From assembly GCA_964529095.1 (NCBI GenBank), contig CAZGVK010000071.1, forward strand, positions 3,607-67,606: a stretch of DNA of 64,000 nt, given 5' to 3'. The position numbers and the translations under genes are program-made. Source of the DNA: an uncultured Elusimicrobia bacterium (GTDB taxonomy: Bacteria; Elusimicrobiota; Elusimicrobia; UBA1565; UBA9628). This document shows positions 699 through 49,541 of the stretch, piece by piece. The first letter of the stretch is position 1, and every line of letters begins with the position of its first letter. A model generated the notes under the pieces. It saw only the letters and a list, made by a program, of their open reading frames with translations. It had not been told where the DNA came from and made no database searches.

Positions 699-1742
699 AT
701 GTTCCCCAAAAAAGCGATGATTCTGGCCGCAGGTGTCGGCGCCCGTCTGCGTCCGCTCACCTACGAGACGCCAAAGCCGATGGTGCCGGTCGTCAACCGT
801 CCCGTGATTTTCCATGTCCTCGACAATCTGCGCAAGCACGGCATTTTAGATGTAATCATCAATCTGCACATGCACCCGAAGCAGGTGCGCGACTACTGCG
901 GCGACGGATCACGCTGGCGCCTCAATATCGCCTACTCAAAGGAATCCAAGCTGATGGGCACGGCGGGGGCCATTAAAAAGTGCTCGAACTTTTTTCAGGA
1001 CGGGCCCTTCTTTGTGATGTCGGGCGACGGCCTCTCCGACATTGATCTCACCGCGATGTGGAATTTCCACCGCCAACGAGGCTCGGTGGCCACCATGGCG
1101 ACCAAGCGCATCGACGCGCGTTTGGAGTACGGGGTCACGCTGACCGGCGCGCGCCAAAAAATTAAGGGCTTCCTTGAGAAGCCGTCTTGGGGCGACGTGT
1201 TCTCCAACAAGGTCAACACCGGCATCTACCTCTTTGAGCCCGAGGTTCTGCGCTTGATTCCCCAGGGGAATGTTTACGATTTCGGCCACGACTTGTGGCC
1301 CCAACTCCTCCAGCTAAAAAAGCCGATCTATGCTTACGAGACCGGCGCTTACTGGTGCGACGTCGGCAACCTCACCGAGTACCGCCGCTGCCAGGCCGAC
1401 TGCCTCAACGGAAAGGTCAAAATCAACATTCCCGGCGTCGAAATCCGCAGGGGCGTCTGGATACAGGAAGAAGCTCTCGTTGATCCGCAGGCGAAGCTGA
1501 TCGCCCCCGTTCTTATCGGCAAGGGCTGCCGCATCGCCTCGGGAGCGCGGGTCGGGCCTTTCACCGTGATCGGCGACCGGGCGCGGATTGGGCGCGGCGC
1601 GAGACTTCACACCTCTATCCTCTTCGACAACGTCACCGTCGGTTCGAACGTGAATCTGACCAATTGCATCATCGGCGCCGGCGGCCATGTGCGCGAAAAC
1701 ATTTCCGCCTACGAGGCGGCGATACTCAACATCCGCACCTAG
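699..1742 (+). CDS. Sugar-phosphate nucleotidyltransferase (mannose-1-P guanylyltransferase / glucose-1-P thymidylyltransferase-like) with C-terminal left-handed beta-helix
   Basis: N-terminal MILAAGVGARLRPLTYETPKPMVPV NTP-transferase motif. The C-terminus has hexapeptide repeats. It follows the phosphohexomutase gene by 1 nt, forming a sugar-nucleotide operon. Confidence 0.8.
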   Translation: MFPKKAMILAAGVGARLRPLTYETPKPMVPVVNRPVIFHVLDNLRKHGILDVIINLHMHPKQVRDYCGDGSRWRLNIAYSKESKLMGTAGAIKKCSNFFQDGPFFVMSGDGLSDIDLTAMWNFHRQRGSVATMATKRIDARLEYGVTLTGARQKIKGFLEKPSWGDVFSNKVNTGIYLFEPEVLRLIPQGNVYDFGHDLWPQLLQLKKPIYAYETGAYWCDVGNLTEYRRCQADCLNGKVKINIPGVEIRRGVWIQEEALVDPQAKLIAPVLIGKGCRIASGARVGPFTVIGDRARIGRGARLHTSILFDNVTVGSNVNLTNCIIGAGGHVRENISAYEAAILNIRT

Positions 1743-4033
1743 GAAAATAGGCCCACGGCCTCAAGCAAGGTCCAAAACTCGGCCGGCGTGGAGATGCGTT
1801 TATCGGGATCCGGCTCGAGCGCTCGGTCGATGAGGGCGTCGATCTGCAGGCTCAGGCCGCGCACGCGCGCCGATGGGCGCAGGTAGCGCTTGGCCATCTT
1901 CGACGGTGTCGTGCCGTCGTACGGGCGCACGCCGGTCAATATTTCATAGAGTACGGCCCCGAGCGCGAACACGTCGTTCTCGCGACGGATAATGCCGTAT
2001 TCCTGCTCGGGCGCCATGTAGTGCGGGGTGCCGACGACCGTCTTGGTCATCGTGGAATTTTCGCGCGAAGAGGCGTGCCGTGAGATGCCGAAATCGAGGA
2101 CTTTCACGCAGCCGTCTTTGGTAAGCATTATGTTTCCGGGCTTCAGATCGCGGTGGATGACGTTATGAGCGTGTGCGTAGGCGAGAGCCGAGCATACGGG
2201 GCCAAGCACGCGCTTGGCCTCGTCCAGCGGCAGTGGCCCCTTCTCGGCGACGACCTCATCAAGGGTGCGGCCTTCGAGGCGCTCGAACACGAGGTAAAGA
2301 CCGCGTTCGTCTTGTTCAATCGCATGGATGTTCACGATTGCGGGATGGTGGAGTTTGGCCACCATGGCGGCCTCCTCCCGCAGGGACTTTTTAGCCGCAT
2401 CATCGAGCAGGAATTCTTCGCGCAGCATCTTGATGGCGACTGGGCGCTTGAGGCGCTTGTCGCGGGCCTCGTAGACAATGCCCATGCCGCCATGCCCGAT
2501 CGCTTTTCCAAGTTCGTAGCGGAGTTCGATTCCCGAGGGGGCGAGGGCCTTCTTGTTGCCCTCATTGCGCAGGCGGTTGTTGATGTGCATGAGGCCGAAG
2601 CCAATCAGAAGGCCGCCGGATAAGGTAAAGATCAGCACGATGCTGAAGGATCTGGCGCGCGCCGTAACGCGCTCGACCAAGGGCTCATTGCTTTCGCGCG
2701 TCAACGGAGAGGGGCTCAGGCCGTGGCGCCGAGTTGAATCGCGGTAGTCGGGATCGAACTGAGGGTTGAGATTTGCCGCCGCTTTAAGGTCGATGGCCAT
2801 CGCCTCGTAGTCGCCGCGGCCTTCCTGCGCATGACCGCGGTTGGCGAAGGCGTAGGGGTTATTGGGGTTGATTTCAAGGGAGTGGTTGGCGTCGGCTATC
2901 GCTTCGGAAAAGCGGCCCATGCGGATGTACGCCCACGAGCGCGCGTCGCGCAGAAAGGCGGCAGACGGGGAGAGCGAAAGCCCGCGTGAGGCGTCACGCT
3001 CGGCATCACTATAGCGCCCAAGAAGATTTTTAGCGGTCGCGCGGTAAAAGAGAACGGTGCTGTTGTCGGGATCTAACTCAAGGGCTCTATCGGCATCGCT
3101 GAGAGCGCCGTAGTAGTCTTTGACGGCAAGTTTAGATCCTGCGGTTTCGACCAAGCGGCGCACCGTGGTCTTTGTTGGATGCGCCGGAGGTGCCTGCCGG
3201 AGAGTCTCAACTTGATTGAGTTGCTGGACCATGCCGTGGTACTCGCGCTCAAGAGACTGCGCCAAGCCCGTATTCCCAAATTCAGGGGAGGCGACGGCGC
3301 GTCCTTCGGATAATTTCATCAACGCGTAAGCGCTTTTGTCGTTTGGATCAACGGCGAGCGCGCGGCGGGCATCCTCTATGGCTTGAAGATAATTTCCGAG
3401 GCCGTAGGATGCCATCGCGCGCGCGGTCCAGGCGCCGCCCGCCTCCGGAGAGCGACGCAACACCGCATCAGCGTCGGAGTAGCCGCGCGCAAAATTTCCA
3501 AGGGCGGAGTTCGCTTGCGAGCGGTTGATGAGGGCGTCTTTGTCGGCGGGGTCGTGGCGAAGCGCTCTGTCGGCGAGTTCGCGGCCTTCCTGCCAACGCT
3601 CGGCCAGGTTGTTGAGGCCGGCGGCCGCCGCAGCAGCCTTCACGACTATTTCCCGGGGCGCATCCGAAGAGACATTTAGGACCGCATGGTTGATTTCGCC
3701 TAAATGATTGTCGATCCATATCTGCTGTTCGGAGGATTTGACCTCGTCAGCGCCTCGAATCAAATCATCGACAATCAACAGGAACTCGGTCTTGATCTTG
3801 CTATTGGGCTGGCTCATCAAGCTCATCTTTAAATCACGAAGCAGGCCCCGTGAGTGTGCGGCGGCGCGGTCACGGGTCAACGGGCCAATGCCGACGTCAT
3901 TGGAAACCATGCGCCAAATGAGCGGCGCTGGGGAGGGTGTGGCGACGGGAGCGTTAGAGGTGTCGTCTGCGGCGCGCACGGACGTCAAGGCCAATAGAAT
4001 AACGAATGCCGACGGCGCAGAGAGGCGTTGCAT
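1739..4033 (-). CDS. TPR-repeat Ser/Thr protein kinase with signal peptide, TPR region, TM segment and C-terminal Hanks-type kinase domain
   Basis: HRDLKPGNIML and DFGISR kinase motifs, GxGxxG with VAIK. About 370 aa of TPR-like repeats lie N-terminal of the TM helix SFSIVLIFTLSGGLLIGFGLM. The likely true start is the internal Met MQRLSAPSAFVILLALTSVRA at 4033, which begins a signal peptide. The ORF track start at 4120 would overlap the upstream gene. Confidence 0.8.
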   Translation of the reverse strand: MQRLSAPSAFVILLALTSVRAADDTSNAPVATPSPAPLIWRMVSNDVGIGPLTRDRAAAHSRGLLRDLKMSLMSQPNSKIKTEFLLIVDDLIRGADEVKSSEQQIWIDNHLGEINHAVLNVSSDAPREIVVKAAAAAAGLNNLAERWQEGRELADRALRHDPADKDALINRSQANSALGNFARGYSDADAVLRRSPEAGGAWTARAMASYGLGNYLQAIEDARRALAVDPNDKSAYALMKLSEGRAVASPEFGNTGLAQSLEREYHGMVQQLNQVETLRQAPPAHPTKTTVRRLVETAGSKLAVKDYYGALSDADRALELDPDNSTVLFYRATAKNLLGRYSDAERDASRGLSLSPSAAFLRDARSWAYIRMGRFSEAIADANHSLEINPNNPYAFANRGHAQEGRGDYEAMAIDLKAAANLNPQFDPDYRDSTRRHGLSPSPLTRESNEPLVERVTARARSFSIVLIFTLSGGLLIGFGLMHINNRLRNEGNKKALAPSGIELRYELGKAIGHGGMGIVYEARDKRLKRPVAIKMLREEFLLDDAAKKSLREEAAMVAKLHHPAIVNIHAIEQDERGLYLVFERLEGRTLDEVVAEKGPLPLDEAKRVLGPVCSALAYAHAHNVIHRDLKPGNIMLTKDGCVKVLDFGISRHASSRENSTMTKTVVGTPHYMAPEQEYGIIRRENDVFALGAVLYEILTGVRPYDGTTPSKMAKRYLRPSARVRGLSLQIDALIDRALEPDPDKRISTPAEFWTLLEAVGLFS

Positions 4034-4052
4034 AGAAGAATGAGTGGCCCCG

Positions 4053-5285
4053 TTAGGGTTCCGCGCGCGGCGCGGAATTGAGCTCGTGACGCAGGCCTGA
4101 GATCGCTTCATACACCGCAAGCCGGGCGGCGTTGACGGGCCCCAAGGGCTCGTGCTCCGGCACGCTGTGCCAGGGTGTATAGGAAAGATTTTCGCAGGAT
4201 GTCATCTGCTCCGGGGAACTGAAGCTTTGCGGTTTAATGAGAATCTTGGCGACCGGAATGAATGGCGAGGCCTTCTCTTCCCACAGGACGGTGGCGTCAT
4301 CGATGGGCATGCCTGGTACCTGCAGCTGGACCATAAAGTCGAAGCAAGCAGGCTCTGCACTCAGCGCCGTCGTCATATTCTCGCGGAGAAAGTTGTCCGA
4401 GTCGGTGGGATAGCCCTTATCGCGCTGCGCGCAGGGTTTGGCCGAGTACTTCATGTTTTGTTCCCGGCCGAGCCGGTAGGGAACCATGCTGTAATACTGC
4501 ATATCCAGTACGTCCGAAGGGCTCTTGAAGGCGATTGATAGCATGATCCAGAACGCCTTCAGCCGCCAGTTCCACGGCCATCCATTCAAAACGAACCCCA
4601 CGGGCGAGGACATCAGGTCGAGATAGTCGGCCGTGTTTTTGATGAAGAACACGGGGTGATTGATCATAAGGAAGTCTTGGGTTCCGTGTTCGGAGGGATG
4701 CAGTTTGGGCCCGGAGACTCCAAGGAGCTTAACGGCCATGCCCCGCCCATCGCCCTTGCCGTCGGGACGGACCGAGCCGCTCCCATTGGAGAAACGGATT
4801 AAGGCGGGGTAGCGGGCTCCCGGCTGAAAGACCCCGCGGCGCACATTTTGGGGAAGATGATCTTCATCGAGCACAGTGAAATGAGCCTGGACGCAGCCAT
4901 GGTGTTTGGCGTGCGCGTCGCGGCGGGCGACGCCGTCGGAGGCGTGCTGAGCCCTCACCTGCTTCTGAATCAGTCCGACGAGGGTGCTGATGACCTCCTG
5001 CTCAGGGCTTTGCGCATCGCCGGCCATGCCCGAACCCAGCGGGCGCACGGACAGTGTGGGCCGCGCGAGGGGGACGACGGGCTCGGTTTGGGTCGGCTTC
5101 CTGGAGACGGGATCGATCGCGCCGGAGCGCGCGTTCTCTCCATCAATCGCATGTCCCGCCGACTCGCCTTCAAGGTGGGAGAGGGACCGCAGCTCTTTTT
5201 TTGAGTCCAAGTCGGCACGGGAACTCGTGGCCAACAAGATGGAGGCGAGAAACACAAGGAGGAATAGGCGCGGAGTGATGGGCAT
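4053..5285 (-). CDS. Secreted catalase-related haem protein (catalase-like domain, small-subunit type)
   Basis: N-terminal signal peptide. RDAHAKHHGCVQAHFTV resembles the catalase distal-His motif, RFSNGSG...RGMAVK resembles the catalase RFST..G..D.RGFA.K block, and ARLAVYEAISGLRH resembles the proximal-Tyr region. Confidence 0.55.
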   Translation of the reverse strand: MPITPRLFLLVFLASILLATSSRADLDSKKELRSLSHLEGESAGHAIDGENARSGAIDPVSRKPTQTEPVVPLARPTLSVRPLGSGMAGDAQSPEQEVISTLVGLIQKQVRAQHASDGVARRDAHAKHHGCVQAHFTVLDEDHLPQNVRRGVFQPGARYPALIRFSNGSGSVRPDGKGDGRGMAVKLLGVSGPKLHPSEHGTQDFLMINHPVFFIKNTADYLDLMSSPVGFVLNGWPWNWRLKAFWIMLSIAFKSPSDVLDMQYYSMVPYRLGREQNMKYSAKPCAQRDKGYPTDSDNFLRENMTTALSAEPACFDFMVQLQVPGMPIDDATVLWEEKASPFIPVAKILIKPQSFSSPEQMTSCENLSYTPWHSVPEHEPLGPVNAARLAVYEAISGLRHELNSAPRAEP

Positions 5286-40618: not shown

Positions 40619-41668
40619 GTGGCCAAGAAACGACTGACGAACACCAATATCGCGGGCCACAGCCTGTTGCCGACGCCGCGCGAAATCACCGCTCGCCTTC
40701 CGGCGACCGAACGCTGCCTTCAGACGGTTTCAGAGGGCCGACGCGCGGTTGGCGCGATACTCGACGGCAAGGACGAACGCCTGCTGATCGTCGTCGGACC
40801 CTGCTCAATTCACGATCCGAAGGCCGCTCTTGAGTACGCGCGGCGTCTGAAGCATTTGGCGGATAGGGTCGCAGACCGTTTTTTGATTTTCATGCGGGTC
40901 TACTTCGAGAAGCCGCGCACGACGATTGGCTGGAAGGGCTTAATCAACGATCCGGACATGAACGACTCCTTTCGCATCGAGGCCGGGCTCAAGCTGGCGC
41001 GCCTGCTCTTGGTCCAGATCACCGAGCTTGGCGTGCACGCGGCCTGCGAGGCCCTCGATCCGATCACGCCGCAGTATCTTTCAGACCTGGTCTCCTGGCA
41101 CGCGATCGGCGCGCGCACGATCGAGTCTCAGACCCATCGCGAGATGGCCAGCGGCCTCTCTTCTCCCGTCGGCTTCAAGAACGGCACCGACGGCAATATT
41201 CAGGTCGCCATCGACGCCATGCGCTCGGCGCTATCTTCGCATCACTTTCTCGGGGTCGACGCCGATGGGCGGACGTCGGTGTTTCGCACCAAGGGCAATC
41301 GCTGTGGGCATGTGGTGCTTCGCGGCGGCAAGATGCCGAACTATGACGAAAAGAGCGTGGCGCATTGCCGTGACGCATTGCTCGCGGCCGGCCTTCCCGG
41401 GCGAATGATGATCGACTGCAGCCACGGCAACTCAAACAAGGATCATCGCCGACAGCCCGCCGTCTTCGAGTCAATCCTCGCGCAGAGGCTGAAAGGCGAT
41501 AGCGGAATCATCGGAGCGATGATCGAGAGCAATTTAAAGGAAGGAAACCAACCCATCCCGCGGGATCTCAAGAAGCTAAAGTATGGGGTCTCGGTGACTG
41601 ATCAATGCCTCGATTGGGAGACAACCGAGAAGATGCTCCTCAATGCGTACCACCGTCAAGCCGCGTAG
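40619..41668 (+). CDS. aroG: 3-deoxy-7-phosphoheptulonate (DAHP) synthase, class I alpha (AroG/AroF type)
   Basis: LLPTP...ATE....V...R.A...L.G.DERLLIVVGPCSIHD aligns with the E. coli AroG N-terminus. KPRT and GVHAACE motifs are present. Confidence 0.88.
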   Translation: MAKKRLTNTNIAGHSLLPTPREITARLPATERCLQTVSEGRRAVGAILDGKDERLLIVVGPCSIHDPKAALEYARRLKHLADRVADRFLIFMRVYFEKPRTTIGWKGLINDPDMNDSFRIEAGLKLARLLLVQITELGVHAACEALDPITPQYLSDLVSWHAIGARTIESQTHREMASGLSSPVGFKNGTDGNIQVAIDAMRSALSSHHFLGVDADGRTSVFRTKGNRCGHVVLRGGKMPNYDEKSVAHCRDALLAAGLPGRMMIDCSHGNSNKDHRRQPAVFESILAQRLKGDSGIIGAMIESNLKEGNQPIPRDLKKLKYGVSVTDQCLDWETTEKMLLNAYHRQAA

Positions 41669-44600
41669 CCAAGCCCTCGACGATCGTCTCCAAGTCTGCG
41701 CGCACGGCACTGCGGCCGAAGAGCATCCTCTTGATTGCCAGCCCGATCAGGCTGGGACGCGAAATCGTCTTGTCGCGCCAGGCGCGCGCTGCGACTCCGT
41801 CCTCCAGGGACTTGAAAATATAGTCCTTGGGGAGAAACTCAGAGTAGCCGGTGTAGATTAGGAAGGCCTTCTGCAGGGGCGCATACTCAGGGGCGACCAG
41901 AGCGCCGAGCTTCTCGGCCTCAAGCAGGCCGTCCATCATGCGCTCGATGATCCCGGCGTCAGCGCGCCGGATGAGGCCCTTTCCGATATTGGCCAGAACA
42001 TCATCGGCCGAGCGCGTATTTGGAACTTTAATGATTGTCAACAAGGCTCGCGCGGACGCTTCCGAACTTCCCGCATCCAAGGCTAGACCCGCCCTCATCA
42101 AAGGCTTGAGCAATTCGATAGGCTGAGCGTTGCCCTGACCCAAGTCTATGACCACAAGTTTTGGCCTCAAACTATTGATGCCCCCTTTGAGCGCATGGCG
42201 GTTGCCCGTGTGCGGGTCGGGCTCGAGCCATTCGTCATAGATGAGCTGGAACATGCCCTCGCGCACCGCAAGCTTAGAAATGGCGGTCTTGCTTGGGCCC
42301 AGCAAGGAGCGCTTCGGCAGGTCCGAAAAGCGCGTGGTCGCGATGAACTCCTCGATCATCACATCCTCTCCGACATAGATCGGATGGGGATTGGGGATGT
42401 GGGGCCGAGGGGAGGCCAGCCGCGCGTACCATGGGCGGGCCCTGGAGCGTCTAAGCATCGCCAGCTCCTTATCCTTTTCATCGACGAAGTTCATCTCCGC
42501 CTGCACCATCTTCTTGACCTCATCTAAAAGCTGTCCCGCCGCCGGCAGATTTAGATCTCCGTTGCTCTGCATGGTATTGATGAGCTCGTCGAATAGCTCG
42601 AACTCGCGCTTGGTGCCGTAAGCGGCGCCGGGGGCGCGAAGCTTGACCACCCAGGTCCGCTTATCTTCGAGGACAACCTTATAGACCAGCTTGATTGATC
42701 CGGCCCCGAGTTCCGGCCCCATCTCCGTGATCCAGCGCACTTTTGCCTTCTGCTCCTTCAGGAGAAAGGAAACCTGGCGGATCAAGCGCTGACGCGCAGC
42801 GGCATCAAGAGACATCTCCTCGTTGTCGCTGGGCAGAGCTTGATAGCTGAGCGCGTCGAGTTGCTCATCCGTCATGGCCGCCGAGGGCGCGGCAGGCGCC
42901 TCACTCTTCCAGAACGTCGATAGCAGCCGGTCCCAGGATTTTATAAGCCAATTTTGGGCCGACGCCGTCCAGCCCGTCTTGTCTGAAGACCGCTCGCCCA
43001 CGCGGCCCGCGATGGCCGCGAGGCGCTCCGTGATCAGACTGTAGGAGCGCATCTTTTCCATGTTTTGGGCGCGATCCTTAAATATTTCCAAAGGCTTGAC
43101 GTACTCCGCGGGAACCAGGCCCTTATGCGTCGCCAAAACCTGGGCGACTTTCTTTCCGGTCACGCCCATTCCCCTCAAGGCTACCGAGACAATTTCCGGG
43201 CCCTTGAGCTCGGGGCCGACGTCATCTAAAGCGGCGATGTCGGCGATGAATTTCGCGCGCTCGTCCTCGGTCAATATCTTGAAATAGGCGCGGAACGTCT
43301 TCTCCATGAAAGGAGGCAGGTCGCGCCCGACGATGACTAGGCGCTCGAAGAGGCGCTCGACTTCGGCCGGGGCCTTGTGCAGTGCGCCTTCGCCATAGAA
43401 CAGCGCGCGGGTGAGGAGCGCGCGGTCCTTGGAGTGCAGCAGGCTCATGTAGTTCTCAAGCTGAAATATGCTGCGCAGGGCGGCATTGTCGCGCGCCATC
43501 TTCTTGCGTTCGCCGCTTAAGATGCGCTTGTTGAATGCTTTCTTCTTCTCCAGGCTCAAGCGTTCGATCTTGGCCAAGTGCAGGAGGATGTCCACTTTCT
43601 CTGCCGGGGAAAATTTCCGCATCTGTATGACGGCTTGGTCGAGCAGGTGCTTTTCCATGACGCGGACCGGATTTGGCTGGCGGTAGCTCTTGTTTGACTC
43701 CAGGTGCGAGAGGCTTCCCGGGGAGAGGCGCCGCGCCTTGATCAGGCGCTCAAGCAAGTCGTCGCGCGAGCGCGTCGGCTCCGGGTAGTTATCAACGATC
43801 AAGCCCAGGACGGGGTCCTCCAGGCCGGCGAAGGCGTTATAGAGCTCCAATAGTATGGGTTTCAGCGTTCCCTTGACCCGCTCTTTGTAACCCTTGATGA
43901 CTTCGTCCTTTTCATGAGGAAGCTGGGTAGGCCACTCGCGCTCGGAAAGGTTCACGTCCTTAAGATAGGAGAGATCGTCTTTGGTGAACGCGCCCTTGTC
44001 CCAACGCTCGCGGGCCTGCTTGGCCTGCTCGGTCGCATTGCGATCAATCTCTTCGAGCACATCGAATATCTTGTCCTCCAAGCTACCCTCGCCGCGCAGA
44101 CCTTTGAGAAACTTCGCGGAAAAGTGCTTGCGCGCTCTAAAATAAGCCGCGATCAGACGCCGTGTCGCGCGGTACCACTCCGGCAAGGAGCGCCGCAGCG
44201 GCTTTTCCCCGAAATTCGACTCAGGCATAAGATCGAAGAGCTTTGTTCGCAACGCGGGGTTGCGCACGATCTTCAAGGGCTGGGCTTTGGGAACCGGGAG
44301 ATTTCCGAAAGGCGTATTGACGAAGGAATAGCCATCGGAAAAGTTAGAAGAGATTTTCACGGTCAGGCGCTTAAGGCGCTTGCGGTCCTTCTTGACCCAC
44401 TTCCGGAACGCCTCCGGGTCGGCATTGGCCGTATCAATAATGCGCTTGTCGAGCTCGTCGCTGAATTCCCCATTGGAATTGAAGAAGTCGAGCAGATCGA
44501 CGCGATCGGCGGTGTCTTTGGGCCACGCATGAGCCGCATCGAGACGTTTTGCCATATTCAGCGCCCAACGGGTGTTGACGCCTCGAAATGGGTGCTCGCC

Positions 44601-47600
44601 CTTGGCCACCGAGCGATATGCCTCGTTGCGCTTGATGTACTCCGCGCCCTGACGGAAAGCGTTCGTGGTCGTTCCCGTAGTCTCGAAGTCCGGATTGAAG
44701 AGGCCGGGGTGCAGATCGTTCAAACGCAGGAGCAGAGTCGCCGTCGCGGGCAAATCCTCGACGCGCTCAGAAGCCGTGGAAACATCCTCGAAAAGCCAGC
44801 GTCCCGCAACCGCAGCGGCGCGCATGCCGATGGCTTTGCCCATGAGGTCCGCTTCTTCCCACCCGTGGTCGATGTCAAGGCGGTCGAGCAGGGCCGCGGC
44901 CATGAGCTTGGTCTTTGTATCTGTCTGCGGGTCGCCGATCATGGCAAGGAAATGGACATAGTCGTTGGTGTCGAGCGGGCGCAAACTGGCCTCGGGAATT
45001 CCGGCCAAAGTCGGCTTGCCCCGGCGCTTCTTGACCCACTGCAAATGCAGAACCTTATCTTTCACCGCGCGATAGCTGGCGTCAATCCAGCGCAGGATGA
45101 AAACAAGGGGCTTGGTCATCCTGGAATGTTCCTTTGCAAGCCATTTCTTGTAGCGTGTCTCTCTGTTGCCTAGCGCCTTGGGTATGGCCAAATCGTAGGC
45201 CGCCATGTATTCATGGTCCTTGCCGATGTGGGCGCCGAGATTGGCGGCGTAGGCCTTGACCAGGGACGAGCTGGGAAAAGCGCGCAAAAACTTTTCAATA
45301 TGGGCTACCAACGTCGCGGTCTTGCGTATCTCAGCGAAGTCGGGGCGTGAGCCGGCAAGGTCGATCCCCACGACCGCCTGGCGGATCGCGGCACTCAAGC
45401 TGTAGAAGAATTCAAATGCAAGCTGGCTCCGGTTGGACTCGCCATAGGCGGCATTGATCTCGGGCGACTCGATGAGCAGCTCAACTTGCTTCCATGCTGC
45501 GGCCGTGGTCTCGCGGATCGTTTTAAAATCCCGCAGGTTATAAAGGACTGAGCGTAAAACTCCGCCGACCTCAGACTGGTACCAATCGAGATGATCACGG
45601 CGTTCTTCAGAGGTCGCAACGCCCTTAAGTCGCCGTTTGAGTTCCGCGCCGATGTCTGAATAAAAGGCCGTGATGTATGCGTCGAGCTTGCCCTCCTCGC
45701 GAAGCAAGCGCACGGCAGCGGGTGGGAAAAGGCCGCTCCCGAACCATTCTGTGATGTCGATTTGATCCTGAATGCTTGGGGAAGATAGTCCATCTAAATG
45801 ATAACGCTCATAGACGAAGATGGTTTTTCCATTGACCTGCCCTGGCGCGGGCGGGGTATAATGCCGCTGCGACCATGGCTCCAGGCCCTCGAATTTCTTG
45901 GTGCCCCAAGGCCGATCAACCTTGAAAGAGGACAGCGTCCCCCGCAAAAGAGAGGCCAATTGAGAAGGCCGGTATTTCTTGGAACGCGAGGCCTCAGGGC
46001 CGAAAGCGCTCTCTATAATCTCCACCTGTATTGAGTTGTGGTAGGTCTTGAGCCACGAGGGAGAGAGCTTCATGATCAATTCGGCGATGATCTCCTCAGG
46101 CAGGGCCGGACGCTTCAACTCGGCGCTTAGAACCCGCCGCGTCGCGCGCCAAATCCTCGTGCCCACGTCGAGCTTTAGATCGAACGTGGATCGACTTTCT
46201 TCGTTCATCTTCCTTATGTCCAGGCCGAGATTCTCGGCCTCCGCAGAGAGGACCTTGTAGATGGCGTCGAGCTGTTCGCGATCCTTGACCGTGCCCAGAA
46301 TGCGCAGAGTTCCCGCGCGGCGAGTCTCCTCGCTCAAGCTGACGGCGGCCCTGAGAAACTTGGCCAGCGTCATCGGCTCATCGATGCCCTTGAATAAAAT
46401 ATCGAGCTGGCGCGAGATCATGTCGGATCTCAAGCGATGGGAAGGGAAAAAGTCCCCTCTCTTCTCACGGTTCATTGATATCTCGATGGGACGCAGACCT
46501 TCGATTGCATCAACGCGTTTGAGGAGTTTTCGGTAGGCCTCATCGATGATCGCGTACTTTTCGCCGTCGATAGCGGCATTGGCCGACTCGTGTTCAATGA
46601 AAGTCTCTAGGGAGTAGATGCTCTCCGAGAGGGTGCGGCCAGCAAGCGCTTGCTTCAGGCGCGCGGCAAAACGATCGATGTGACTCGATCTTTCCTCAGC
46701 CAAGCGCCGCGTCATCCAAATTGGAACGCCGACGGCCGGAATGGAGGGCTTGAACGCCTCGTTGGCCTGGTTCATGTGGTCCATCATGTTGGCTCTGCGT
46801 ATATCGGAGTGGGGGTGGACGTCGCGCAACCGCTGTAGGATCTGGGCAAGCTCGCTCTTATCCCTCTTAAGAAGGGTGTATTCCTTCTCCAAGCGGTCAT
46901 ATTCGCGGTCCAAGGCATAGAGGCTGTCGATGGCGGCCTGGGGCTGATAGCCGGCGGCGGCGGCAAGCTTCAAGCCCTCGGCATCGGCTTCCATTTCGTG
47001 GAAGTGTCCTAAAAGCTGTTGGCCGACGCCGGAGAAGTCCTTGAGGTGGCTCTTCCAATTGTGCATGAGCTCGTGAGCGATGATAAATGCGAGTTGGTCC
47101 TCGCTCTCCATCGAACGAAGCAGTCCCAGCGAGACGAAAATGTTCGAAACGCGGAAAGCCTTGGCGAGATCCGCGTTGTTTTCGAGGAAAACCCCTTCGC
47201 TCTTAACTATGGTGGTGAAAGCGTTGGGGAGCATGGAGTTGCCTGTGAATATTTGGGCCGCCTCGCGCGGCAGGCCCGCGGCCTTGAGCAGGCGCCGGAG
47301 AATGCGCTCGATATCATGGTGCAGGATTCCGTCGCCGACGTCTCCGCCAAGCTCTGTTCTGAGAATGCGGTAAGCGTCCATCTTGACATCTTGGCGCAGA
47401 CGAAAAAGAGCCGAGGTCGCTTCCTCGGTGGCGCTGGAGTCCTTATTGGGCGACGGGGAAAGCTTCGCCTCTGGCAATTCTTCGGTGGATTCAACGCCCT
47501 TGACGACAATAGATTCATCGTCTCCATCGAGGAGCGGCTCGTTATTATCGTAGGCGCTGTTGAGGCCCTGCGCCAACTGCTCGCGGCGCAGAGCCGTGAC

Positions 47601-48005
47601 AAAAGAGGAAAGGCCAGTCAGCAGGTCCTTGTTTTTTTCCGCGATGAGAATCCGGTTGGCGTCGCGCAAGACTGCCGCGACTTCGGTGTCGAACGAAGAA
47701 GCGGCGAGAGACGGTTCGGCCGCGAGGGCGAGAATGCGGCGGGCCGAAAGAACTTCTTCAGTGCTGCCGGTTCCTGAGGCGATGCTGTTGAGAGTACGCA
47801 GGCCGGAGAGGACATCTAATTTAAGAAGATGCATCTGCGAGACAAAAACTCCGGATCTGAAAATATTGCCGTTAGGAATTTGAGAGAGCGGGAGCGCGCG
47901 CTGGGCGAACACGATATCGGCTGGAACGCTTGCGCTGAGAAGGCATGCGCAGAGCATGGAGGCCGTGGATTTCCTAAGGGATCGGATCATGTTCTTGTCG
48001 GCCAT
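41640..48005 (-). CDS. Giant (2121 aa) signal-peptide-bearing multidomain protein: N-terminal M48 (BepA/HtpX-like) metallopeptidase domain, ~1300-aa helical middle region, C-terminal ABC1/UbiB-type atypical kinase domain
   Basis: Signal-like N-terminus. NAFTTI followed by AHELMHNWKSH (HExxH) and HEMEAD (the E.EAD third zinc ligand) gives the M48 signature. The C-terminal GAGSIKLVYKVVLEDKRTWVVKLRAPG, DPHTGN and VVIDLGQG match ABC1/UbiB kinase motifs. The reading frame is uninterrupted for 6366 nt. It overlaps the aroG 3' end by 29 nt, convergently. Confidence 0.75.
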   Translation of the reverse strand: MADKNMIRSLRKSTASMLCACLLSASVPADIVFAQRALPLSQIPNGNIFRSGVFVSQMHLLKLDVLSGLRTLNSIASGTGSTEEVLSARRILALAAEPSLAASSFDTEVAAVLRDANRILIAEKNKDLLTGLSSFVTALRREQLAQGLNSAYDNNEPLLDGDDESIVVKGVESTEELPEAKLSPSPNKDSSATEEATSALFRLRQDVKMDAYRILRTELGGDVGDGILHHDIERILRRLLKAAGLPREAAQIFTGNSMLPNAFTTIVKSEGVFLENNADLAKAFRVSNIFVSLGLLRSMESEDQLAFIIAHELMHNWKSHLKDFSGVGQQLLGHFHEMEADAEGLKLAAAAGYQPQAAIDSLYALDREYDRLEKEYTLLKRDKSELAQILQRLRDVHPHSDIRRANMMDHMNQANEAFKPSIPAVGVPIWMTRRLAEERSSHIDRFAARLKQALAGRTLSESIYSLETFIEHESANAAIDGEKYAIIDEAYRKLLKRVDAIEGLRPIEISMNREKRGDFFPSHRLRSDMISRQLDILFKGIDEPMTLAKFLRAAVSLSEETRRAGTLRILGTVKDREQLDAIYKVLSAEAENLGLDIRKMNEESRSTFDLKLDVGTRIWRATRRVLSAELKRPALPEEIIAELIMKLSPSWLKTYHNSIQVEIIESAFGPEASRSKKYRPSQLASLLRGTLSSFKVDRPWGTKKFEGLEPWSQRHYTPPAPGQVNGKTIFVYERYHLDGLSSPSIQDQIDITEWFGSGLFPPAAVRLLREEGKLDAYITAFYSDIGAELKRRLKGVATSEERRDHLDWYQSEVGGVLRSVLYNLRDFKTIRETTAAAWKQVELLIESPEINAAYGESNRSQLAFEFFYSLSAAIRQAVVGIDLAGSRPDFAEIRKTATLVAHIEKFLRAFPSSSLVKAYAANLGAHIGKDHEYMAAYDLAIPKALGNRETRYKKWLAKEHSRMTKPLVFILRWIDASYRAVKDKVLHLQWVKKRRGKPTLAGIPEASLRPLDTNDYVHFLAMIGDPQTDTKTKLMAAALLDRLDIDHGWEEADLMGKAIGMRAAAVAGRWLFEDVSTASERVEDLPATATLLLRLNDLHPGLFNPDFETTGTTTNAFRQGAEYIKRNEAYRSVAKGEHPFRGVNTRWALNMAKRLDAAHAWPKDTADRVDLLDFFNSNGEFSDELDKRIIDTANADPEAFRKWVKKDRKRLKRLTVKISSNFSDGYSFVNTPFGNLPVPKAQPLKIVRNPALRTKLFDLMPESNFGEKPLRRSLPEWYRATRRLIAAYFRARKHFSAKFLKGLRGEGSLEDKIFDVLEEIDRNATEQAKQARERWDKGAFTKDDLSYLKDVNLSEREWPTQLPHEKDEVIKGYKERVKGTLKPILLELYNAFAGLEDPVLGLIVDNYPEPTRSRDDLLERLIKARRLSPGSLSHLESNKSYRQPNPVRVMEKHLLDQAVIQMRKFSPAEKVDILLHLAKIERLSLEKKKAFNKRILSGERKKMARDNAALRSIFQLENYMSLLHSKDRALLTRALFYGEGALHKAPAEVERLFERLVIVGRDLPPFMEKTFRAYFKILTEDERAKFIADIAALDDVGPELKGPEIVSVALRGMGVTGKKVAQVLATHKGLVPAEYVKPLEIFKDRAQNMEKMRSYSLITERLAAIAGRVGERSSDKTGWTASAQNWLIKSWDRLLSTFWKSEAPAAPSAAMTDEQLDALSYQALPSDNEEMSLDAAARQRLIRQVSFLLKEQKAKVRWITEMGPELGAGSIKLVYKVVLEDKRTWVVKLRAPGAAYGTKREFELFDELINTMQSNGDLNLPAAGQLLDEVKKMVQAEMNFVDEKDKELAMLRRSRARPWYARLASPRPHIPNPHPIYVGEDVMIEEFIATTRFSDLPKRSLLGPSKTAISKLAVREGMFQLIYDEWLEPDPHTGNRHALKGGINSLRPKLVVIDLGQGNAQPIELLKPLMRAGLALDAGSSEASARALLTIIKVPNTRSADDVLANIGKGLIRRADAGIIERMMDGLLEAEKLGALVAPEYAPLQKAFLIYTGYSEFLPKDYIFKSLEDGVAARAWRDKTISRPSLIGLAIKRMLFGRSAVRADLETIVEGLATRLDGGTH

Positions 48006-48095: not shown

Positions 48096-49541
48096 ATGGC
48101 TTATGATTGGAAATCATTACGCTACAGAGAGACCATCGATGAGTTTCGTGCATTGATATACTTTCCGCCGATGCCCAAACCGGTGGACCGCCGTCACCTT
48201 CCACATAAGACGGGCGTCTACATCATGCGCGACGCCGCCGGAGACATCCTGTACATCGGCAAAGCTCTTGATCTAGCCAAGCGCGTGGCCCAATACTTCA
48301 ATCCGCGCAAGACGGATACGATGGGCCAGTCGCTTGCCGCGATCATTCGCACGATTGACTATATTCTCTGCGAATCCGAACGCGAGTCGCTGTTGCTTGA
48401 ACGCCGGCTCATCAAGGAGAATCAGCCCTTCTTTAATGTTCTCTGGAAGGATGGCAAGACCTACCCCTATCTCAAGATCACGATGGGCGAGGCATTCCCT
48501 CGTCTCATAACGACGCGCAATAATATTCGCGACGGCGGGGCCTATTTTGGCCCCTTTCCTAAGATTTCACCCCTGCGCGCCTTACTTCGGTATCTCTGGA
48601 AACAAAAGCTCTTCCCGTTGCGGCCCTGCCGGTGGGACTTTTCTGAGACGAAGCCCCTCGACCCGCATAAGATAAACGCCTGCCTTTATTATCACACGAA
48701 GCAATGCCCGGCGCCCTGCGCGGGGAAGATAGCCCAAGCTGATTATCGCGAAATCGCCCAACGAGCCGTCATGTTCTTCAAGGGCAAGTACGCCGACCTT
48801 AGGAAGGAGTTTGAGCGGAAAATGCAATCCGCGTCCGGCGCAATGGATTACGAACGCGCTGCGGAATTTCGCGACAATGTCTTGGCATTGTCCCAGATGG
48901 GAGAAAGGATCAGGGTGCGCTCCGTCGAGACGGAGACCGTCAGCGGCCTTACCGCTCGCACGCGGATGCTGACCAATTTACAGAAGGCCCTCCTATTATC
49001 CGTGCCGCCGGTGCACATCGAATGCTTTGACGTTTCTCATTTCCAAGGGCATCAAACCGTCGCGTCGATGGTCTGCTTTCAGGGCGGAAAGATCTGCCGC
49101 GACCACTACCGCAAGTTTAATATCCGGAACGTCGTCGGCATCGATGACTTCAAGTCCCTGCGCGAGGCCGTGTACCGCCGCTATAAGCGCTTGGCGGTGG
49201 AAAAGGCGAGCCTGCCCGACCTCGTGCTTATCGATGGAGGCAAGGGGCAGCTCGGGGCCGCGCAAGAGGCGCTCAACGATCTGAAGCTCAAGATTCCGCT
49301 GGCCTCATTGGCAAAACGAATCGAGGAGATATTTCTCCCCGGGTGCGCCAAGTCCATTCTCCTGCGCCGCGACGACCCCGCTTTGCGGCTGCTCCAGCAG
49401 TTGCGCGATGAGGCGCATCGCTTTGGCCTGGCCTACCATCGCCTCCTCCGTGATAAGCGCCTCTTCCAATCCCTTGGCGCGCGCAAGCTCAGGCTTCAAT
49501 CGAAGGTGAGGACGACCTTGCCCGTGTTGCCTCGCTCCTGA
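48096..49541 (+). CDS. uvrC: UvrC-like excinuclease (GIY-YIG + UvrBC-interaction + endonuclease domains, lacking C-terminal HhH pair)
   Basis: GIY-YIG motif GVYIMRDAAGDILYIGKA, UVR motif ERAAEFRDNVLAL, and the endonuclease block CFDVSH...IDGGKGQL. At 481 aa it ends before any helix-hairpin-helix region. Confidence 0.75.
   Translation: MAYDWKSLRYRETIDEFRALIYFPPMPKPVDRRHLPHKTGVYIMRDAAGDILYIGKALDLAKRVAQYFNPRKTDTMGQSLAAIIRTIDYILCESERESLLLERRLIKENQPFFNVLWKDGKTYPYLKITMGEAFPRLITTRNNIRDGGAYFGPFPKISPLRALLRYLWKQKLFPLRPCRWDFSETKPLDPHKINACLYYHTKQCPAPCAGKIAQADYREIAQRAVMFFKGKYADLRKEFERKMQSASGAMDYERAAEFRDNVLALSQMGERIRVRSVETETVSGLTARTRMLTNLQKALLLSVPPVHIECFDVSHFQGHQTVASMVCFQGGKICRDHYRKFNIRNVVGIDDFKSLREAVYRRYKRLAVEKASLPDLVLIDGGKGQLGAAQEALNDLKLKIPLASLAKRIEEIFLPGCAKSILLRRDDPALRLLQQLRDEAHRFGLAYHRLLRDKRLFQSLGARKLRLQSKVRTTLPVLPRS

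Follow-up and report, generated by a model that had tools for sequence, protein, structure and literature searches.

A giant, predicted exported protein of Elusimicrobiota and Bdellovibrionota fuses an M48 metalloprotease to a UbiB-family kinase-fold domain

One open frame encodes a protease, a helical scaffold, and a kinase-fold domain

We analyzed a 64,000-nucleotide (nt) stretch of contig CAZGVK010000071.1 from an uncultured Elusimicrobia bacterium (hereafter the window) and examined a giant gene on its reverse strand, the product of which joins an M48 metalloprotease domain to an atypical kinase domain of the UbiB/ABC1 family. From the N- to the C-terminus, the chain comprises a putative signal peptide or signal anchor, a flexible linker, an M48 domain of the BepA type, an all-alpha scaffold, and a UbiB-family kinase-fold domain (Table 1). 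As judged from the aligned sequences, the catalytic and plug residues of the M48 domain are complete, as are the nucleotide-binding and phosphotransfer residues of the UbiB domain, and Elusimicrobiota and Bdellovibrionota have both inherited the complete arrangement as one unit. The architecture is new, while its component domains are known.

Table 1. Coordinates of the giant gene, of the segments and motifs of its product, and of other features in the window
Feature	Position (nt)	Strand	Residues (amino acids, aa)	Remarks
Giant gene, complete	41640..48005	-	1-2121	2121 codons plus stop; ATG start; one open frame
Sec-type signal peptide or signal anchor	47904..48005	-	1-34	MADKNMIRSLRKSTASMLCACLLSASVPADIVFA, followed by Q
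Linker, predicted disordered	47436..47903	-	35-190	Pro/Ala-rich in many homologues
M48 zinc metalloprotease domain, BepA/3c37 type	46746..47435	-	~191-420	
HELMH	47061..47075	-	311-315	Two zinc ligands and catalytic Glu
HEMEAD	46983..47000	-	336-341	E337, third zinc ligand, equivalent to BepA E201
HPHSDIR	46797..46817	-	397-403	HP-x4-R "active-site plug"; H397 equivalent to BepA H246
All-alpha scaffold	43221..46745	-	421-1595	~1,170 aa
Lineage-variable loop	45006..45143	-	955-1000	Amphipathic helix, then KKRRGK basic patch (window protein)
Pre-kinase helical module	43236..43880	-	1376-1590	
Best-conserved block	43656..43805	-	1401-1450	NYPEPTRSRDDLLERLIKARRLSPGSLSHLESNKSYRQPNPVRV (NYPEPTRSRD..LLER..KARRL..NKSYRQPNPVRV)
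UbiB/ABC1-family atypical kinase domain	41643..43220	-	1596-2121	KxGQ lid; variable N-lobe insert (aa ~1651-1750)
KVAQ	43140..43151	-	1619-1622	KxGQ equivalent, G to A
Trp-rich amphipathic segment	42900..43080	-	~1665-1700	TGWTASAQNWLIKSWDRLLSTFWKS
GAGSIK	42690..42707	-	1767-1772	Glycine-rich nucleotide loop in place of UbiB AAAS
K1788 in VVKLR	42642..42644	-	1788	Beta3 catalytic lysine
DPHTGN	42201..42218	-	1930-1935	Catalytic loop; catalytic Asp and metal-binding Asn
DLGQ	42135..42146	-	1954-1957	DFG-equivalent metal-binding Asp
Antisense open reading frame	43914..45173	+	419 aa	Inside the giant gene
DAHP synthase	40619..41668	+		Convergent to the giant gene
uvrC	48096..49541	+		Divergent from the giant gene
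Weak tRNA match	59921..59977	-		57 nt
TPR/Ser/Thr kinase protein	1739..4120	-	793 aa	

An original prediction, made from the letters of the stretch, had read the locus as one uninterrupted 6.4-kb open reading frame (ORF) for an M48 peptidase plus ABC1 kinase polypeptide, and the present analysis bears out most of that reading. The gene is a single frame, and no sign was found of the frameshifts or stops that might have split it into separate conventional genes, its homologues being end-to-end matches. The M48/BepA-type motifs lie where they had been placed (NAFTTI starts at aa 261; HELMH and HEMEAD are listed in Table 1), and so do the kinase motifs GAGSIK..VVKLRAPG, DPHTGN, and VIDLGQG. A Pfam search, which had been proposed as a check, recovered both Peptidase_M48 and ABC1 above their cut-offs, with predicted folds in agreement, and found nothing else significant in the protein. 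The intervening region, put at about 1300 aa, is indeed predicted to be helical but is shorter than claimed. The fusion, the retention of which in related genomes had been proposed as another check, is kept in every full-length homologue examined, and the suspicion that this combination had not been described also held, since we found in the searchable literature no paper on the architecture and no description of an exported UbiB protein. Public records carry automatic names only ("AarF/UbiB family protein" and "M48 family metallopeptidase" are examples), and the NCBI entry P0001 is 100% identical to the window protein. Nor did we find in that literature any account that unites a protease, scaffold, and kinase in one chain with an apparent location outside the cytoplasm and with the WNK-like glycine loop described below. 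A second in-frame ATG is present at codon 6, and a start there would retain the N-terminal hydrophobic segment.

The fusion is inherited as a unit in two phyla

We collected about 40 full-length homologues of roughly 1,800 to 2,400 aa, all of which retain the fusion. They form two clades that are approximately 20% identical to each other, one from Elusimicrobiota (clade A, which includes the window protein) and one from Bdellovibrionota (clade B), the latter label being based on the two source-named members of that clade, a Bdellovibrionales and a Bdellovibrionia metagenome-assembled genome (MAG). A search of 5.8 billion proteins returned 16 relatives, one of them 100% identical to the window protein and the rest 31 to 57% identical; both Pfam domains occur in every full-length protein among them, and those with a named source come from Elusimicrobiota MAGs. 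When only the unannotated middle of the protein (aa 430-1590) was used in a HMMER search of 1.84 billion cluster representatives, 35 proteins were recovered, which fell into two groups. Members of the Elusimicrobiota clade matched over the full length of the query, whereas the others matched only aa ~1376-1587. These latter proteins, of about 1,800 to 2,130 aa, nevertheless have the same layout: they begin with a signal peptide-like segment, carry M48 around aa 100-250, and end in an ABC1 domain. A clade B profile retrieved 4 proteins from a word-indexed database. Scanning one genome per GTDB species with clade A gave 10 loci, all in Elusimicrobia/Elusimicrobiota MAGs. In one of these MAGs, SMAG_U13832 (Elusimicrobiota), the family is represented twice, by genes on separate contigs (L007, DATLOS010000673.1, and L010, DATLOS010000465.1).

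The relationship between the clades was examined by profile-profile alignment. With hhalign, clades A and B gave one continuous alignment of 1,616 columns (probability 100%, E 5e-91, 19% identity) that spans aa 209-2023 of one and aa 62-2001 of the other, so the whole architecture, scaffold included, has a single origin. Because the contigs derive from MAGs, we also considered that the ORF could be a chimera, produced by misassembly or by read-through of separate M48 and ABC1 genes, but we found no evidence for this and give the idea practically no credence. About 40 assemblies, produced independently in different studies and drawn from two phyla, share this architecture from end to end, and full-length homologues that are 44 to 57% identical to the window protein align with it from end to end, which indicates neither a frameshift nor a chimeric assembly. 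The comparative data thus refute a chimera. Homologue searches revealed neither a naturally split version nor a close relative that stands alone, and a search with just the kinase domain retrieved only partial proteins of the same family at contig ends. The sole candidate split, locus L017 (994 aa plus 899 aa), was rejected, as a run of N interrupts one fused gene there: its upstream ORF carries HExxH, ExxAD, and HP..R and ends in the N-run. Likewise, P0030 proved to be a contig-end fragment and not a short member. In another protein, P0023 (1982 aa, from JGI), the M48 pattern lies at aa 625-716, three hydrophobic segments follow near aa 1489-1535, and kinase motifs are missing; this member may be truncated or built differently.

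The M48 domain has a full catalytic set and an active-site plug

Peptidase_M48 (PF01435) matched aa 230-321 of the window protein (profile positions 5-81 of 186) with 40.2 bits, above its cut-off of 20.3 (E 4e-10). The predicted fold is that of an M48 catalytic domain and matches BepA and 3c37. Although a sequence search of the PDB with the window protein alone gave no match, a family profile reached both M48 and ABC1 structures. In the alignment of 26 family sequences from both clades, on which all residue counts out of 26 are based, H311, E312, and H315 are invariant, and HMMER aligns HEMEAD with "NEQEAD" of BepA and "EYEnqAD" of 3c37. H397, P398, and R403 are also invariant in both clades, and E337 is nearly so. 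The M48 family pattern proposed by Bryant et al. 2020 (PMC7950410), H-E-x-x-H-x(30,140)-H-P-x(4)-R, is found at aa 311-403 of the window protein and in 39/39 full-length members. In BepA, the histidine of HP-x4-R fills the fourth zinc site and thereby holds the enzyme latent (PMC7950410). As the equivalent H397 is invariant, we infer that the M48 domain would likewise be a latent, regulated protease.

At this end of the protein, the closest known systems are the soluble or lipoprotein M48 peptidases BepA, LoiP, YcaL, and Geobacter 3c37. The window protein is nonetheless not an orthologue of BepA, as it scores 18.5 bits with the NCBIfam equivalog NF052400, for which the cut-off is 570. Only 22 residues separate HExxH from the third-ligand Glu, compared to 61 in BepA, so that the "lid" segment is largely missing. 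In addition, Pfam sees no TPR in the window protein, which has the helical scaffold and the kinase domain instead.

The UbiB-family domain keeps its phosphotransfer residues and has a glycine-rich loop

ABC1 (PF03109) matched aa 1766-1957 with 50.8 bits, above its cut-off of 22.9 (E 1.7e-13). The domain is predicted to adopt a UbiB-type kinase fold with an N-terminal lid, matching Rv3197, MSMEG_1954, and COQ8A, and the family profile aligns with Rv3197 and COQ8A from the lid motif through the nucleotide loop and the beta3 lysine to the alphaC motif. The lid reads "aaKLaQvlAsH" in the family, "AMKVGQALS" in Rv3197, and "AALKLGQMLS" in COQ8A, which brings K1619-V-A-Q1622 into register with K-V-G-Q and K-L-G-Q, respectively. 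The K and Q of this motif are invariant, whereas most members have Ala at the G position, with Gly retained in P0016, P0022, and P0025. Residues K1619, Q1622, E1837, D1930, H1932, N1935, D1954, G1956, and Q1957 are invariant in both clades, with E1837 (the alphaC Glu), D1930, H1932, N1935, and D1954 counted in 26/26 sequences. This invariance of the core in both clades is the signature of a nucleotide-binding, phosphate-transferring enzyme and not that of a decayed domain.

The domain shares with UbiB, COQ8A/ADCK3, Rv3197, and MSMEG_1954 the atypical kinase fold, an N-terminal lid helix with a KxGQ-like motif, the N-lobe insert, the ELDF..E alphaC motif, an HxDxHxGN-type catalytic loop, and the DFG-like Asp. 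It departs from them in the nucleotide loop. An alanine-rich loop (AAAS) is the hallmark of the UbiB family (PMC8956952), but most members of the present family have G-[SA]-G-S-[ILVF]-K at this site, together with K-x-A-Q in place of KxGQ. In ADCK3, exchange of the third loop position for glycine (A339G) produced clear protein kinase activity in vitro (PMC8956952). The window kinase further differs from UbiB proteins in being preceded by a conserved helical module of ~215 aa, fused to a protease, and predicted to be extracytoplasmic. Its scores also set it apart from UbiB orthologues, as it reaches 42.8 bits with TIGR01982 (cut-off 487.55) and 19.4 bits with PRK04750 (cut-off 667). Given the absent A-rich loop, the altered KxGQ, and the missed orthologue cut-offs, it belongs to a divergent UbiB/ABC1 branch.

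The loop lysine K1772 is invariant in 26/26 sequences and lies next but one after G-[SA]-G-S, at the PKA-G55/WNK1-K233 site, which makes it a putative WNK-like catalytic lysine. The family sequence G-S-G-S-I-K-V-V-Y-K follows the pattern G-x-G-S-Φ-K-x-V-Y-K and resembles GRGSFKTVYK of WNK1, in which K233 is the relocated catalytic lysine. The canonical beta3 lysine (K1788) is K in 21/26 sequences and Met in 5/26, all of the latter in the Bdellovibrionota clade (P0034, P0039, P0043, P0045, and P0046), and each of these five keeps the lysine equivalent to K1772. For WNK and CAK-chloro kinases, Kannan et al. described K72-to-M occurring together with a positively charged position 55, and the Met members resemble CAK-chloro kinases in this exchange. 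The window protein, unlike WNK, retains both lysines, and the resemblance would be one of working and not of family membership. The WNK-like loop is convergent and shares no homology with WNK past the common kinase fold.

Two further features of this domain were observed in subsets of the family. In the window protein and in P0002, the N-lobe insert contains an additional amphipathic segment rich in Trp (Table 1), which may be a further membrane-interface element. A single conserved Cys lies 5 to 12 residues before the C-terminus, in a C-x-x-[LF]-F-like context, in otherwise almost Cys-free clade B proteins (P0029, P0031, P0032, P0036, P0039, P0043, P0045, P0046, and P0053 to P0055). It is missing from the window protein and its clade and does not form a canonical CaaX box.

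The scaffold contains the most conserved block of the protein

The region between the two enzymatic domains is predicted to be almost entirely alpha-helical, with predicted local distance difference test (pLDDT) values of mostly 70 to 95. No Pfam family covers it, and a fold search gave only generic helical repeats or rods and no specific relative. Within it, the pre-kinase module (aa 1376-1590) is the sole part that a single-sequence search detects across both clades. The block at aa 1401-1450 inside this module tops all 50-residue blocks of the protein, above either active site, with identity to the window residue averaging 0.75 for clade A but 0.31 for clade B. The scaffold, and this block above all, thus represents a protein module without a recognizable relative.

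At the opposite extreme, aa 951-1000 are hypervariable, with identity to clade A down to 0.11. In the window protein, the loop located here forms an amphipathic helix with a hydrophobic moment of 0.5 to 0.57, followed by the basic patch. At the same site, P0004, P0005, P0006, and P0015, which belong to one Elusimicrobiota subclade, have two hydrophobic helices, and P0012 has a single hydrophobic stretch of 31 residues. From these features, we infer that the variable loop may be a site of contact between the scaffold and the membrane.

Sequence features indicate a location outside the cytoplasm

The first 34 residues of the window protein comprise a positively charged n-region (K4, R8, R11, and K12), a hydrophobic core, and V-F-A|Q after residue 34, in agreement with the signal-like N-terminus of the original prediction. 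A heuristic scan found a positive n-region, a hydrophobic core, and A-x-A|Q-type sites in about 30/37 full-length members from both clades, and those without a signal-like N-terminus look like mis-called starts. A lipoprotein reading of L18-C-A-C21 was rejected, since it is no canonical lipobox and the Cys is not conserved among homologues. The linker that follows has pLDDT values below 50 (aa 26-190) and an identity to clade A of 0.11 to 0.20.

Cysteine content points in the same direction. The window protein has only two Cys, both within the signal segment, and none in the remaining ~2,090 residues, while about 24 would be expected in the mature chain from the average of 1.16% Cys in 30 neighboring genes. 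Similar depletion was found in four other genomes, from both clades (0 to 3 Cys compared to 14 to 23 expected; P 1e-5 to 2e-8), and it spans both halves of the chain. Moreover, the closest solved relatives of the M48 domain are periplasmic BepA and soluble 3c37 and not the membrane-embedded Ste24 type. Apart from the P0012 stretch and the P0023 segments, the sole internal hydrophobic segments are the paired hairpins of some homologues. Clear membrane helices between the enzymatic domains are not odd in number in any member, so both enzymatic ends should lie on the same side of the membrane. Together, these sequence features indicate that the protein works outside the cytoplasm. The earlier suggestion that an ABC1 kinase would thereby come to lie outside the cytoplasm accordingly gains support, on a heuristic basis, from the conserved signal peptide, the Cys depletion, and the BepA/3c37-type M48 domain.

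Proposed working and alternative explanations

The reading we favor, with a probability of about 0.5, is that the protein is a Sec-exported, envelope-resident, membrane-associated bifunctional protease/kinase scaffold. The Sec pathway would export one polypeptide, which would stay in the envelope, facing the periplasm and lying against the membrane, with both enzymatic ends on the shared extracytoplasmic side. The scaffold would meet the membrane at the variable loop, by way of the amphipathic helix in the window protein and of the hydrophobic hairpin in some relatives. The UbiB module may act as a membrane- or lipid-activated ATPase or kinase, as proposed for COQ8, Cqd1, and Cqd2, and the glycine-restored loop with its WNK-like lysine would make real (auto)phosphorylation likelier than it is for UbiB proteins of the classical type. 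Acting by way of the scaffold, the kinase module might gate the cutting of envelope proteins by the latent, plug-inhibited M48 domain, or the protease might control the kinase; in the former case, the UbiB module would couple membrane or lipid state and nucleotide state to the latent protease.

Several observations weigh against this proposal. The periplasm is regarded as devoid of ATP (PMC11366764), and the strong constraint on every phosphotransfer residue is hard to square with a purely periplasmic life. The homologues with a hairpin have Arg/Lys-rich flanks and an uncharged connecting loop, so that, by the positive-inside rule, the flanks and hence the bulk of the protein would be cytoplasmic, in conflict with the signal peptide and the Cys depletion. 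The signal peptides were called by heuristics, and the structure models are of moderate confidence (mean pLDDT 73; predicted TM-score 0.47 to 0.56), having been built from shallow alignments of 14 to 16 sequences. The coupling of kinase and protease is suggested only by the fusion itself and by co-localization of the two families in plastids, and the gene neighborhoods at 11 loci indicate no partner, operon, or substrate.

The ATP problem would be solved if the protein were instead a secreted effector or toxin that leaves the cell after Sec export, by type II secretion, in vesicles, or through lysis, and acts in or on prey or a host, where the cytoplasm of the other cell or its damaged envelope would supply ATP and the kinase and protease would modify target proteins or membranes. 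A signal peptide, a Cys-free chain, giant size, and multiple enzymatic modules are common among secreted toxins, the gene has a patchy distribution and is seldom found (35 representatives among 1.84 billion proteins), and one of its clades is found in Bdellovibrionota, which are predatory bacteria. To our knowledge, however, a predatory lifestyle is not known for Elusimicrobiota, and the mid-chain two-helix hairpin of some homologues would anchor the protein in the membrane of its producer. We detected no translocation, receptor-binding, or secretion-system domain in the protein and no secretion or immunity gene nearby, the neighbors being housekeeping genes that differ in every genome. The source-named clade A members and all 10 loci of the species scan are from Elusimicrobiota and colinear, which looks like vertical inheritance of a cellular function, and we consider an effector unlikely.

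Two other explanations dispense with ATP outside the cytoplasm in different ways. The protein could be a protease scaffold outside the cytoplasm with a UbiB domain that turns over no ATP, its kinase fold sensing a lipid, isoprenoid, or phosphate ligand or using a non-ATP donor and regulating the M48 domain allosterically. The export evidence fits this as well as it fits the favored reading, and so does the lack of periplasmic ATP; UbiB proteins are modulated by lipids and small molecules, their protein kinase activity is hard to demonstrate, and five members have lost the beta3 lysine. Yet the catalytic Asp, the Asn, the DFG-Asp, the alphaC Glu, and the loop Lys are invariant in 26/26 sequences across clades that are only ~20% identical, and the nucleotide loop has grown more kinase-like (GxGS) instead of degenerating. 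The Met members retain the loop Lys, a combination that preserves catalysis in WNK and CAK-chloro kinases, and a pseudo-enzyme seems rather unlikely to us. Alternatively, the N-terminal segment could be an uncleaved anchor or go unused for export, leaving the bulk of the protein at the cytoplasmic face of the inner membrane with ATP at hand. The M48 protease HtpX and UbiB of Escherichia coli both face the cytoplasm and provide a precedent, and the charged hairpin flanks of some homologues fit two cytoplasmic halves. With 2 to 4 positive charges ahead of the hydrophobic core and A-x-A|Q-type sites, an N-in/C-out orientation is expected instead, and the mature chain is essentially Cys-free in five genomes. 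An M48 domain nearest to periplasmic BepA and soluble 3c37, as opposed to the membrane-embedded members, and a Pro/Ala-rich spacer after the signal, which would be typical of envelope proteins, also argue against a cytoplasm-facing protein, which we regard as improbable. A bolder claim, that the protein represents a catalytically active UbiB-family kinase/ATPase outside the bacterial cytoplasm that is physically wired to an M48 protease, is one that we put forward tentatively and consider doubtful.

Precedents and implications

Further known systems close to the kinase end are yeast Cqd1 and Cqd2 (Mcp2), with which human ADCK2 and ADCK1/5 were grouped. Like the proposed location of the window domain, the UbiB domain of Cqd1 and Cqd2 lies on a periplasm-equivalent side, facing the intermembrane space, and canonical kinase-fold residues are needed for their function. 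The intermembrane space contains ATP, however, whereas the bacterial periplasm is regarded as lacking it, and Cqd1 and Cqd2 are single-domain, membrane-anchored proteins without a fused protease that act on coenzyme Q distribution. A second precedent is PGM48, an M48 protease that is co-expressed with ABC1K7 and ABC1K3: in plastoglobules and cyanoglobules, members of both families sit side by side on one lipid surface. There they are separate proteins within the stroma or cytoplasm, and the likeness is drawn at the level of families. By analogy, the bacterial fusion may be a "Rosetta-stone" type of link, which would predict direct functional coupling.

If such coupling is real, UbiB-type kinases and M48 proteases would form one functional unit on membrane or lipid surfaces, which would offer a testable explanation for the co-occurrence of PGM48 and ABC1K proteins in plastoglobules and cyanoglobules and, by extension, for OMA1 with ADCK/Cqd proteins at the intermembrane-space face of the mitochondrial inner membrane. 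A kinase that gates the protease, or the reverse, would then be a concrete hypothesis for the PGM48-ABC1K pair. If the export call is right, the protein would challenge the textbook view against kinase-fold ATP users in the bacterial envelope, and its apparent location poses a puzzle about ATP use outside the cytoplasm. An active kinase there would imply an unrecognized nucleotide supply or an alternative phosphodonor in the envelope, or action in a compartment of prey or host. The UbiB/ABC1 proteins, an ancient and universal group with links to disease, have in the present family a natural experiment on their activity and partners, in which the kinase is covalently joined to an M48 domain with a BepA-type plug and carries the loop change that activates ADCK3 and a WNK-like lysine, apparently on the "wrong" side of the membrane. 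An architecture that is rare and yet deeply conserved sharpens the question of what UbiB kinases do and why they associate with M48 proteases.

Genomic setting and minor features of the window

The window, with a GC content of about 59%, is ordinary bacterial chromosomal DNA that includes leuS-lptE-holA, DAHP synthase, uvrC, alaS, aconitase, and metH. The giant gene is solitary: uvrC diverges from it, and its 3' end overlaps that of the convergent DAHP synthase ORF by 29 nt (41640-41668), a junction at which we looked for a terminator-like hairpin and found none. No conserved gene neighborhood exists among the 11 loci, where only the giant gene and antisense ORFs recur. The antisense ORF of the window and comparably long ones at homologous loci look like shadow ORFs of a GC-rich gene and not like genes. 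PADLOC gave zero matches and PHROGs one insignificant match, so nothing suggests a defense or phage origin. A weak Rfam tRNA match scored 32.8 bits against a gathering score of 29 and was not called by ARAGORN; it may be a truncated or degenerate tRNA. The window also encodes a second, conventional kinase, a protein with TPR repeats and a C-terminal Hanks-type Ser/Thr kinase domain (Table 1).

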